The translations under genes and the position numbers were made by a program. This document shows, in pieces, positions 13,016 through 17,067 of a DNA stretch of 64,000 bases (positions within the stretch are counted from its first letter, which is position 1; every line of letters starts with the position of its first letter). This DNA is from Escherichia coli (GTDB lineage Bacteria > Pseudomonadota > Gammaproteobacteria > Enterobacterales > Enterobacteriaceae), in NCBI RefSeq assembly GCF_013315695.1, contig NZ_CP054353.1; one strand, 5' to 3'. Below the pieces are notes generated by a model, which did not search any database, was not told the origin of the DNA, and worked only from the letters and a program-made list of their open reading frames with translations.

Positions 13016-14109
13016 TCCTGAGCCAGAGAAAGCAGTATTTGCGTAACGCGCCCTGCGGAAAGCGGGGTGCTGTGAGTAAATACTGCTTGTTTATGTAGCC
13101 AGTCGATAAAATGTCTGCTGGTTGCGAAAGAGAGCATTACAGCTTTGCTGTTATTTCCGCCCGTTAATGCACATACCATTTTACGATTTTTGCCCTGAAC
13201 CCAGAGTTGCCACTGATTTTTCCACCAGCCGTGATAAGTTTTTCCCTGAAAACGCCAGGGCGTATTATCGGTATAGTCAGCTATTTCCTCTTCAATAAAC
13301 CAAATTTCACCTTGCTGTTGGCGAAACAGTTCTGCCCAGGCCGTAATAATCGCACCTCTTAAAAAACACTCGTGTGAAATTACATGTGTTTTTACTGTAG
13401 GGAATAAAATATTCAGTACTCTAAAATGCCCGTGCGCTGTGATAACCGGACGCAGAATAACACCTTTAGCATTGCGTTTGAGCGCTGCGCTGCCATACTG
13501 AATTTCATCAAACTGACTGCGGCGTAGAAATTGTGCTTCGCGCATATCAACGCGTTGTACAATATTACTCTCGTGTAACTCTGGTTCTGCATTTCCTCTG
13601 TATCGATAATACAGACTTTCTCCAGCCTGATGCTGCGTGTAATTAGTAGAAAGATGAAGAATATTACCGCGAAGAGCATCAAAACTGATTAAAACATACA
13701 GTTTCTGCCCGCCGCTGGCTCCCTGAAATGGCACCAGAAGAGCAACCGTTTCGATTATTTCAGGAGGCGTTATTTCTTTCTGATATTGTTTAGGTGTCCA
13801 GACTTTTTTGCAGTTACGACATTGAATGCGTTGCGACCCCTGTGGATTGTGGCCATAACAAATCGTCTTTGTGCCATAACATACCGGGCAGAAATGACCT
13901 TTCTCAGTTGCAAAAGTAGATAAGTGAACTGACAACCAGTCACGAAATTGCTGTTCGTCAAACAACGGCGGGTAACTTCCACATGCCCGACAGTGCAGTG
14001 CCGGATAACCCAGTCGATAGTCTGGCCAGCTGTAATCTGTCGAAGTTGGCTGCCCTAAATTACGGCAACCAAACGACTTGCAGGCATTAATCGTAAACAG
14101 AGTCGACAT
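12979..14109 (-). CDS. Hypothetical cysteine-rich (multi zinc-ribbon) protein, accessory; function unknown
   Basis: 376-aa ORF in visibly AT-richer DNA; N-terminal 100 aa carry C-x4-C, C-x2-C, C-x2-C and C-x2-C pairs including CPVC...QRIQCRNCKKVW, which resembles the IS1 InsA / IS1595-type transposase zinc ribbon; no recognisable catalytic motif; 3' end overlaps metL by 37 bp. Confidence 0.55.
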   Translation of the reverse strand: MSTLFTINACKSFGCRNLGQPTSTDYSWPDYRLGYPALHCRACGSYPPLFDEQQFRDWLSVHLSTFATEKGHFCPVCYGTKTICYGHNPQGSQRIQCRNCKKVWTPKQYQKEITPPEIIETVALLVPFQGASGGQKLYVLISFDALRGNILHLSTNYTQHQAGESLYYRYRGNAEPELHESNIVQRVDMREAQFLRRSQFDEIQYGSAALKRNAKGVILRPVITAHGHFRVLNILFPTVKTHVISHECFLRGAIITAWAELFRQQQGEIWFIEEEIADYTDNTPWRFQGKTYHGWWKNQWQLWVQGKNRKMVCALTGGNNSKAVMLSFATSRHFIDWLHKQAVFTHSTPLSAGRVTQILLSLAQDYNNCARRLISD

Positions 14110-14241
14110 ATATCACCAACGATTTCACAAGGTCGTTGATTTTGTCCGGCAACGCTCCCTTGTGGATGTGATTGCTCTCACATAAATAATTCTTTCAGAA
14201 CGTAATGTAGCAATCCTTTATCTCACTGGAAGGGATTGTTT

Positions 14242-15795
14242 ATGAAAATTAAAATGCTTGCTGCGGGTATCGCATTAACACTGCCGTTTTGGGCTTGCGC
14301 CAAAGATGTCACCATCATTTATACCAACGACCTCCATGCACATGTAGAGCCTTATAAAGTGCCGTGGATTGCTGACGGTAAACGAGATATTGGCGGCTGG
14401 GCAAATATCACTACGCTTGTTAAACAAGAAAAAGCTAAAAACAAAGCGACCTGGTTTTTTGATGCGGGTGACTATTTTACCGGGCCGTATATCAGCAGCC
14501 TGACTAAAGGCAAGGCGATTATCGATATTATGAATACCATGCCATTCGATGCGGTCACTATAGGTAATCATGAATTTGATCACGGCTGGGACAATACGTT
14601 ATTACAGTTGAGTCAGGCAAAATTCCCGATTGTGCAGGGTAATGTTTTTTATCAGAACAGCAGTAAATCATTCTGGGATAAGCCCTATACCATCATTGAA
14701 AAAGACGGCGTGAAAATTGGCGTGATTGGTTTGCACGGTGTATTTGCCTTTAATGATACGGTATCTGCGGCAACGCGAGTGGGTATTGAGGCGCGTGATG
14801 AAATTAAATGGCTACAACGTTATATCGATGAACTCAAAGGCAAGGTTGATTTGACCGTTGCGCTGATTCACGAAGGTGTTCCGGCCCGCCAGTCCAGTAT
14901 GGGGGGCACAGATGTGCGCCGCGCACTGGATAAAGATATTCAGACGGCAAGTCAGGTGAAAGGGCTGGATATTTTGATCACCGGGCATGCACATGTGGGT
15001 ACGCCGGAACCGATTAAAGTCGGCAATACGCTCATCCTCTCCACTGACAGCGGTGGGATTGATGTCGGTAAACTGGTACTGGACTACAAAGAGAAGCCGC
15101 ATGATTTTACGGTGAAAAACTTCGAGCTTAAAACCATTTACGCCGACGAGTGGAAGCCCGATCCGCAAACAAAACAGGTGATCGACGGCTGGAATAAAAA
15201 GCTTGATGAAGTGGTGCAACAAACGGTCGCGCAATCGCCGGTTGAATTAAAACGTGCCTATGGTGAATCGGCTTCCCTCGGGAACCTGGCGGCTGATGCT
15301 TTACTGGTAGCGGCGGGTAAAAACACCCAATTGGCGTTAACCAACTCTGGCGGCATTCGCAATGAGATCCCCGCAGGGGCGATTACGATGGGCGGCGTCA
15401 TCAGTACCTTCCCGTTCCCCAACGAACTGGTGACGATGGAACTCACGGGTAAACAATTACGCAGTTTGATGGAACACGGCGCAAGTTTAAGTAATGGCGT
15501 TTTACAGGTATCGAAAGGCCTGGAAATGAAGTACGACAGCAGCAAACCGGTTGGTCAGCGGGTAATCACACTGACTCTGAATGGCAAACCCATTGAAGAT
15601 GCGACAGTTTATTCTATTGCCACCCAGAGTTTCCTTGCTGATGGTGGAGATGGTTTTACCGCCTTTACCGAAGGGAAAGCGCGTAACACAACGGGCGGTT
15701 ATTACGTTTATCACGCCGTGGTTGATTACTTCAAAGCGGGTAACACCATCACGGATGAACAGATCAACGGTATGCGCGTGAAAGATATCAAGTAA
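14242..15795 (+). CDS. Secreted bifunctional metallophosphatase / 5'-nucleotidase (UshA family)
   Basis: ORF 14236..15795; first ATG at 14242 with GGAAGGG RBS 6 nt upstream; signal peptide [20 protein letters not shown]; motifs [27 protein letters not shown] and a C-terminal nucleotide-binding domain ([14 protein letters not shown]). Confidence 0.8.
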
Positions 15796-16106
15796 AAGTA
15801 CGTATTGAGTTGATTCATTTGTTTGTTACCCGTTGATTTTGCAGATCCAGTATTCGGCCTACGCGAGGGCGCAGGCCGAATCAGATGCCTTAGCATCACC
15901 ATCCGGTGGCAGGACGTTGTTTTTCGAATAAGCCCAGGTGTCGCTGTGTTGTCAGAATATCAGTCAAAACGTGCGAGGTGGATTGCGCTATAGAGAAATC
16001 TTTTATCGCCTCTAATTAAGATGAGTTTTTTTCAACTTCCCTGATTTTTCCTCACCATCATTGGTCATTTTTCGGTTGACGCCCCTCGGCTTTTCCTTCA
16101 TCTTTA

Positions 16107-16138
16107 CATCTGGACGTCTAAATGGATAGATGTTCACA
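16107..16138 (+). promoter_or_regulatory. metF operator (tandem met boxes)
   Basis: acatctgg acgtctaa atggatag atgttcac: four tandem 8-bp met-box-like repeats about 40 bp upstream of metF. Confidence 0.65.
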
Positions 16139-16173
16139 ACACAACATATAACTACAAGCGATTGATGAGGTAA

Positions 16174-17067
<894 letters not shown>

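Follow-up and report, generated by a model that had tools for sequence, protein, structure and literature searches.

The question raised by this locus is how two accessory genes of Escherichia coli, transcribed outward from one short intergenic region, are controlled, and whether the product of one of them regulates the other. The region lies in a 64,000-nt stretch of contig NZ_CP054353.1 (assembly GCF_013315695.1; hereafter the window), at positions 14110..14241. On its left is the gene for a 376-aa zinc (Zn)-ribbon, RNase H-like (transposase-derived) protein (12979..14109, minus strand) and on its right that for a 517-aa periplasmic UshA-like 5′-nucleotidase (14242..15795, plus strand). An earlier note on this DNA had described an AT-rich, 132-bp divergent control region between the two genes of an islet, had seen no clear operator palindrome in it, and had suggested that the Zn-ribbon protein acts on the nucleotidase gene from there. 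Its description of the locus is accurate: the ATG codons at 14109 (minus strand) and 14242 (plus strand) delimit exactly these 132 bp, the GC content of the spacer (40.2%) is below that of the two genes (45-48%) and of the window (52%), and the string that was quoted, cacataaataattctttcagaacgtaatgtagcaatcc, is located at 14179-14216. The islet is equally real, as alignment to an islet-free strain shows that 13017..~16026 stands in place of ~197 bp of islet-free E. coli; that is, the 3-kb islet is held between the end of metL (13015) and the start of metF (16177). The statement about palindromes, on the other hand, has to be withdrawn, given that the spacer contains both a perfect TGTGA-N6-TCACA (14167-14182) and a 6+6 bp inverted repeat, CAACGA-N10-TCGTTG (14117-14138). 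The first of these is the key to the answer proposed here, namely that the spacer is probably a compact bidirectional promoter region of class II type that depends on CRP, the receptor protein for cyclic AMP (cAMP).

The CRP-binding site, with the core TGTGAttgctcTCACA at 14167..14182 (centre 14174.5), was predicted from its perfect half-sites, its score and its conservation. The perfect TGTGA-N6-TCACA motif has only this one match in the 64 kb, where 0.05 would be expected by chance. On a position weight matrix (PWM) derived from 107 chromatin immunoprecipitation sequencing (ChIP-seq) CRP sites of E. coli H10407 (PMC4287617, Table 1), the core reaches 15.8 bits, which makes it the top 16-mer of the window (the next one scores 12.6) and places it at the 83rd percentile of the ChIP-seq sites, and all the remaining 16-mers of the spacer stay below 9 bits. 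It is also the top-scoring CRP-like 16-mer of each orthologous spacer. A chance origin of the site is thus ruled out by the window count, the PWM score and the footprint conservation described below. Elsewhere in the window, other CRP-like 16-mers of 11-12.6 bits on the same ChIP-derived matrix are found at 163, 25948, 28824, 25799 and 17268, the last of which (TTTGATCTACATCTCT) sits between metF and katG.

A scan for relatives of the Zn-ribbon protein in one genome per species returned 37 loci. Of the 36 enterobacterial loci, which come from more than 10 genera, 33 have the nucleotidase gene next door in divergent orientation, across a spacer of 131-140 bp, so that the divergent arrangement, for which the earlier note had suggested a check of conservation, turns out to be widely kept. 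The genera include Escherichia, Citrobacter, Klebsiella, Kosakonia, Phytobacter, Enterobacter, Kluyvera, Pluralibacter, Silvania, Superficieibacter and Rahnella, along with Salmonella arizonae. Many of these genera have the pair between metL and metF too; this location seems to be the ancestral one, and the pair has apparently been lost from K-12-like E. coli. Within the species, the spacer is present once per genome in 1841 of 5426 complete genomes (~34%). The CRP core is intact in 24 of the 34 orthologous spacers, most of the others being one base off in the right half (TCGCA or GCACA), and at least 10 different central hexamers go with intact half-sites. In nearly all loci the distance from the CRP centre is 65-66 bp to the start of the Zn-ribbon gene and 66-68 bp to that of the nucleotidase gene, and among 23 non-redundant spacers not a single indel separates the CRP site from the −10 element predicted on either side. 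Half-sites under constraint, a centre that varies freely and an unchanging spacing are what marks a functional CRP site kept at a fixed distance from promoter elements.

The phylogenetic footprint, computed as the information content per position over the same 23 spacers, consists of blocks of 1.4-1.95 bits that alternate with segments of 0.4-0.8 bits. From left to right these are block A (ACCAACGATTT, 14115-14125, 1.91 bits), a loop (0.73 bits), block B (GGTCGTTGATTTTG, 14131-14144, 1.58 bits), a variable 21-bp segment adjoining the CRP site (0.60 bits, the least conserved part of the spacer), the TGTGA half-site (1.95 bits), the central N6 (0.76 bits), the TCACA half-site (1.60 bits), and an A/T tract flanking the CRP site (14183..14189, TAAATAA here and TAAAAAA in most genera, 1.56 bits). 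There follow CTTTCAGAACGT (14192-14203, 1.74 bits), the last five bases of the rightward −10 element plus one (14204-14209, 1.40 bits), and the ribosome-binding, or Shine-Dalgarno (SD), region (1.63 bits). Relative to the predicted starts, the A/T tract would span about −32 to −26 on the rightward side and about −51 to −57 on the leftward side, and it may have a role like that of an UP element contacted by the alpha C-terminal domain (alpha-CTD) of RNA polymerase. This alternation upholds the view that the two genes share a divergent control region; the part of the earlier proposal that changes is the main predicted regulator, which is CRP, a global factor, and not the neighbouring protein.

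On the plus strand, the predicted −10 element of the nucleotidase promoter, TAATGT (14203..14208), would direct initiation near 14215 and put CRP at about −40.5; on the minus strand, CAAAAT (14139..14144) is the predicted −10 element of the Zn-ribbon gene, with a start near 14132 and CRP at about −42.5. The two predicted starts are ~83 bp apart and the CRP site is nearly equidistant from them. The distribution of CRP sites in E. coli has its maximum ~40.5 bp upstream of mapped starts (PMC4287617). Positions T1, A2, A3 and T6 of the rightward hexamer (TAAnnT) are kept in at least 90% of the 23 spacers, and A2 and T6 of the leftward hexamer are invariant, CAGAAT and TAACAT being variants of it. 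Across the orthologous spacers neither side has a conserved −35 element: at the rightward −35 position ACATAA/CATAAA match at one to two of six bases, and at the leftward one there is one match in six at a 17-bp spacing or a non-conserved four in six at 16 bp. A simple sigma-70 scan of the spacer found no self-sufficient promoter, which fits activator dependence. The leaders that would run from the predicted starts have folding energies of −1.5 to −2.6 kcal/mol, which do not surpass those of shuffled sequences; both being unstructured, the ribosome-binding sites would be free, including the SD sequence of the nucleotidase gene (AAGGG, 14230..14234, plus strand), which ends 7 nt before the ATG.

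A number of points weigh against such a reading. Both CRP distances are derived from predicted −10 elements and, being 2 bp apart, could not both be optimal; the leftward promoter may be less dependent on CRP, or independent of it. On the minus strand, TCCACA (14161-14166), which abuts the CRP site and is found in this strain only, is −35-like at four of six bases and lies 16 bp from the leftward −10 element; it could render the leftward promoter partly CRP-independent in this strain. The stretch 14183-14211 is conserved beyond what a class II promoter needs, which suggests that something else is encoded there too. A subgroup of loci, made up of a paralogous copy of the gene pair, has a weaker CRP right half-site (10-13 bits), and the site of one locus (L033) has just 5.7 bits. 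Furthermore, the literature, searched by site sequence, by locus and through crp-mutant transcriptomes, yielded no start-site, CRP-occupancy or expression data on the locus, which the K-12 and H10407 data sets cannot cover; three variants of the CRP site, looked for in the text of the H10407 ChIP study (PMC4287617), are not present in it.

Taking both sides together, the bidirectional CRP-dependent promoter region would work as follows. One cAMP-CRP dimer would occupy 14167-14182, about midway between two back-to-back promoters that have no −35 elements, and at high cAMP it would, from its class II-type positions, recruit RNA polymerase in both directions: rightward for the periplasmic 5′-nucleotidase and leftward for the Zn-ribbon gene. 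Where other strains carry the full-length island, the leftward promoter may also drive the nucleotidase, nucleotidase and tsx-like genes that follow. The nucleotide-scavenging genes would probably be induced once good carbon sources are exhausted, and this nucleotide-to-nucleoside scavenging module would join the catabolite-controlled regulon of tsx, nupC, nupG, cdd, udp, deo and cpdB. Established CRP targets include cdd, cpdB, deoC, nupC, nupG, tsx and udp, and a single CRP site that serves divergent promoters has been documented for 11 gene pairs of K-12 (PMC3105977). The extra conserved boxes, CAACGA-N10-TCGTTG and CTTTCAGAACG, would probably form a specific control layer operated by a further DNA-binding protein, for which the Zn-ribbon protein is the first candidate.

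Another reading is control of the CRP/CytR type, in which the nucleoside repressor CytR would sit beside CRP in the variable segment to the left of the CRP site and counteract activation, as at deoP2, tsx-p2, cdd, udp and nupG. The functional analogy with the CRP-dependent members of the CytR regulon would favour such control, and at the equivalent of 14149-14162 there are TGCAA-N3-TTGCA/TTGCG palindromes in Kosakonia and Phytobacter (L015, L016, L027) and GTTGCATA in Klebsiella (L021, L024, L028); these sequences resemble the CytR octamer, GTTGCATT. However, the sequence of the window at that place is GGCAACGCTCCCTTG, which has neither a repeat nor a pair of octamers, no other part of the spacer is conserved less than this segment, and there is one CRP site here compared with two in classical CytR promoters. 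Joint control by CRP and CytR is therefore quite improbable at this locus.

The two extra boxes are candidate operators. The inverted repeat CAACGA-N10-TCGTTG (14117..14138) spans footprint blocks A and B and overlaps the predicted leftward start and leader, and its promoter-distal arm is invariant in the 23 sequences. The box CTTTCAGAACG (14192..14202, plus strand) would fall between about −23 and −13 in the predicted nucleotidase promoter and is nearly invariant save in the most distant locus. To our knowledge, it bears at most a half-site resemblance to the consensus sequences of DeoR, PurR, Cra, PhoB, CpxR, TyrR, ArcA, FNR, sigma-E, sigma-32 and sigma-54.

Alternatively, the conserved blocks other than the CRP site could work as RNA, that is, through a CAACGA/UCGUUG hairpin in the leader of the Zn-ribbon gene and a hairpin at 14209-14240 that sequesters the SD sequence in the nucleotidase leader. 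In the minus-strand sense, 95.7% of the cells of the 6-bp helix are pairable when G-U is counted, and the second hairpin (GCAAUCCUUU...AAGGGAUUGU, plus strand) has a predicted energy of −11.9 kcal/mol (z = −2.1) and covers the nucleotidase SD sequence. However, the first helix lacks covariation support, as compensatory changes are absent altogether and one arm does not vary, and the left arm of each hairpin is at or upstream of the predicted start and hence missing from the predicted transcripts; the SD-masking hairpin would form only in transcripts that start upstream of ~14215. An Rfam scan of 12800-16400 at E<=1 matched no family, so no known riboswitch or small RNA was recovered there. An action of these blocks at the RNA level is thus unlikely. 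Two further kinds of feature were set aside. A terminator-like hit at 14117-14138 has a stem with three G-C pairs and is situated between divergent gene starts, where nothing ends, and the four terminator-like hits of the region equal the number expected from shuffles (4.0). The small open reading frames (ORFs) of the spacer are merely mechanical ones of 21-35 aa that overlap the gene starts.

If the boxes are protein sites, the nature of the Zn-ribbon protein becomes the next question. It contains two Cys4 ribbons, of which the second is weakly IS1/IS1595-like (NF050000, 21.3 bits compared with a cut-off of 28). It belongs to a small family, for which 1.8 billion proteins yield 142 representatives at 50% identity and whose core has no Pfam model, and 16 of 57 family members match the Pfam model Zn_ribbon_InsA (PF03811; best E 4e-8). 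A sequence search of the PDB with the protein gave just compositional matches to poly-zinc-finger proteins. AlphaFold modelling yielded a predicted local distance difference test (pLDDT) score of 38 with a shallow alignment and 94.5 with an alignment of 57 sequences, and the resulting model suggests a transposase-like core of RNase H/DDE-type fold. The acidic positions 144, 201 and 247 are D or E in 74%, 84% and 100% of the members, respectively; the triad is only partly conserved, which makes catalytic competence uncertain. Foldseek also returned a resemblance to PIWI and short-Argonaute proteins, which was dismissed as the shared RNase H fold, and PADLOC found no defence-system match for either islet protein.

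Could the locus then be without any dedicated regulation, the Zn-ribbon gene being a decaying IS1-like transposase gene and the boxes relics of a terminal repeat or promoter? To this we give hardly any credence. The ORF is intact, and more than 100 residues are invariant across more than 10 genera; the gene is single-copy in each E. coli genome and keeps its metL-metF synteny in many genera; the inverted repeat has no second copy flanking the gene, none being found in the 8-kb island region; and the family is tiny and tied to nucleoside genes, unlike a mobile element. Being single-copy, syntenic and devoid of flanking repeats, the gene therefore appears to encode a domesticated, immobile relative of transposases.

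The neighbourhoods of distant relatives point in a consistent direction. Relatives at 20-30% identity (L038-L054) adjoin genes for nucleoside or nucleotide scavenging in nine of ten contexts, mostly in divergent orientation. The divergent neighbours are deoD-tal-deoB in Motilimonas, with tsx-like and add genes downstream; deoB, PNP and nupG-like genes in L040; a nupC-type transporter gene and PNP in L041/L042; tal, add, deoC and deoA in L052/L053, with a Bmp/ABC nucleoside transporter downstream; and genes for a porin, an AphA-like acid phosphatase and a class II phosphodiesterase in L050/L051. In three further contexts (L045/L046, L047/L048 and L054), the gene lies directly downstream of a 5′-nucleotidase gene. 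CRP-like sites at P<=0.015 relative to shuffles are present in 8 of 11 upstream regions of these distant gamma-proteobacterial loci, and two of the sites lie 66-70 nt from the gene start, a distance like that in E. coli. A functional link between the Zn-ribbon family and nucleoside/nucleotide scavenging, as suggested by these gene orders, thus has good comparative support.

It is on this ground that the Zn-ribbon protein may be considered as an added local regulator, one that would bind CAACGA-N10-TCGTTG (autoregulation, as for InsA) and/or CTTTCAGAACG and adjust transcription from the CRP-dependent promoters according to a nucleoside or nucleotide signal. InsA represses its own promoter and binds the ends of IS1 (PMC12428005), and the family has its type of zinc ribbon, the window protein having weak IS1/IS1595-like matches. 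The boxes stand at usual places for operators, one covering a start site and the other between −35 and −10, and have no other explanation, and the conservation of the repeat without covariation is what protein sites show, a pattern that is compatible with binding but no proof of it. The nucleoside-linked neighbours of the distant relatives would also fit. Against this, no 7-mer shared by the E. coli spacer and the 10 distant loci survives control for multiple tests (the best, AACGATT, occurs in three loci with a nominal P of 0.037), the two boxes are dissimilar to each other, and in three distant loci the gene follows the nucleotidase gene in the same orientation, where a role as operon partner fits equally. 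Moreover, the segment after the second zinc ribbon (residues ~106-119) has 12-13 residues in the enterobacterial members versus 53-96, with a helix-turn-helix (HTH)-like pattern, in all others, and this loss of a ~55-residue HTH-like segment would weaken the case for sequence-specific DNA binding by the window protein. The IS1 transposase is said to need both a zinc finger and an HTH to bind the IS1 ends, a finding attributed to Ohta et al. from 2004. On balance, regulation by the Zn-ribbon protein is a possibility that we regard with some doubt, as an addition to CRP control. More broadly, and just as tentatively, the family may consist of domesticated IS1-like transposases which gamma-proteobacteria have recruited as regulators or obligate partners of nucleoside/nucleotide scavenging genes, with a CytR-like role at CRP-dependent promoters that would here be exerted via CAACGA-N10-TCGTTG and/or CTTTCAGAACG.

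The wider surroundings of the bidirectional CRP-dependent promoter region are in keeping with a scavenging function. The nucleotidase matches the Pfam models Metallophos (2.4e-12) and 5_nucleotid_C (1.9e-39) and has an N-terminal signal peptide, its NCBIfam matches all being under the equivalog cut-offs (for UshA, 151 bits compared with a 600-bit cut-off), and it is ~27% identical to Bacillus subtilis YfkN (PMC12928451). Across genera, identity is 87-98% for the nucleotidase and 58-92% for the Zn-ribbon protein. Over 3.3 kb, the window is 100% identical to NZ_OZ547117.1. A longer, 7.8-kb form of the islet occurs between metL and metF in E. coli FDAARGOS_1302 (L049, 1717-9505), in the order metL, tsx-like gene (minus strand), two 5′-nucleotidase genes (minus strand), Zn-ribbon gene (minus strand), 132-bp spacer, nucleotidase gene (plus strand), metF. 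Judged from its gene content, the whole module would convert periplasmic nucleotides to nucleosides and let the nucleosides enter, which fits catabolite control. In this longer form an AT-rich 232-bp gap after the Zn-ribbon gene has a CRP-like site of its own, TGTTActaagaTCACA (14.5 bits), followed by CTTTTCTGAAC, which is similar to the spacer box CTTTCAGAAC.

The window itself has a deleted version of the longer island, and this accounts for the antisense position of the final ~12 codons and stop codon of the Zn-ribbon ORF in the 3′ end of metL (12979-13015, a 37-bp convergent overlap). As the islet boundary is at 13017, the C-terminus of the Zn-ribbon protein is therefore made from metL antisense sequence, and the overlap resembles a scar left when the nucleotidase-nucleotidase-tsx part was lost by deletion.

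Some loci (L008-L013 and L029-L033) are a second, paralogous Zn-ribbon/nucleotidase pair outside metL-metF, in which the Zn-ribbon protein is ~70-77% identical; E. coli SCPM-O-B-8794 has both copies of the pair (L005 and L012). In several of these loci a further nucleotidase gene (product ~54% identical) adjoins the pair. The CRP right half-site is usually degenerate in this group (TCGCA or GCACA), and in several members the ATG of the Zn-ribbon gene has become ATA, with a TTG start one codon downstream.

The locus matters for two reasons. The first is that a third of E. coli, including numerous strains isolated from human infections, as well as many Enterobacteriaceae, have the islet (or its 7.8-kb form, which encodes three nucleotidases along with a Tsx-like channel), whereas K-12 lacks it, which is why its regulation is in no database. 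Catabolite control would tie it to the classical nucleoside regulon and gives a testable condition for expression, namely growth on poor carbon sources at high cAMP, extracellular nucleotides being the likely substrate. The second is the rare transposase-fold family with its InsA-type ribbon, consistently tied to nucleoside catabolism genes in distant gamma-proteobacteria, which could matter more than the promoter: should it turn out to be a regulator, bacteria would offer a clear example of a transposase turned by domestication into a metabolic transcription factor.

Set beside known systems, the two islet proteins each resemble a familiar type and differ from it in some features. The nucleotidase has the Metallophos and 5_nucleotid_C domains and the signal peptide of UshA and the periplasmic 5′-nucleotidases, and it misses every NCBIfam equivalog cut-off. 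The Zn-ribbon protein seems to have in common with IS1 InsA and InsAB′ the InsA-type zinc ribbon, at the level of the family, and, according to the structure model, the RNase H-like DDE-type core fold; the inverted repeat over the predicted start of its own gene has the geometry of InsA autorepression. It differs from InsA in the extra N-terminal Cys4 ribbon, in the missing HTH-like segment and in the partial acidic triad, and it reaches no Pfam or NCBIfam transposase model. Unlike IS1 elements, the gene is not mobile, being single-copy, syntenic and without flanking repeats.

As for the spacer, the CytR-CRP promoters, in which two CRP sites flank paired GTTGCATT-like octamers, differ from it in both respects, given its one CRP site and no octamer pair. 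The class II CRP promoters of the nucleoside regulon (deoP2, tsx-p2, nupG, cdd and udp, with CRP near −40.5/−41.5) are more closely matched: here too a near-consensus TGTGA-N6-TCACA overlaps the −35 position, there is no −35 hexamer, the −10 elements are modest and the genes serve nucleotide and nucleoside scavenging. The islet spacer differs from them by its single CRP site, by having no recognisable CytR operator in this strain and by its starts, which are predicted, and its genes are accessory (34% of E. coli), absent from K-12 and in no regulon database. The arrangement as a whole recalls the divergent pairs with a single CRP site (araBAD-araC, xylAB-xylFGHR, glpEGR-glpD and prpR-prpBCDE), with which the islet shares one CRP site in a short spacer between divergent genes and the prospect that one gene is the local regulator of the other. 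The model study of such single-CRP-site divergent promoters, as it is cited in PMC3105977, is that of El-Robh and Busby (2002). Most K-12 examples mix promoter classes or use extra sites, whereas both promoters of the islet are predicted to be of class II. As far as its sequence tells, the region would be an undescribed example of a well-known kind, the CRP-dependent divergent promoter region, with two extra conserved boxes.

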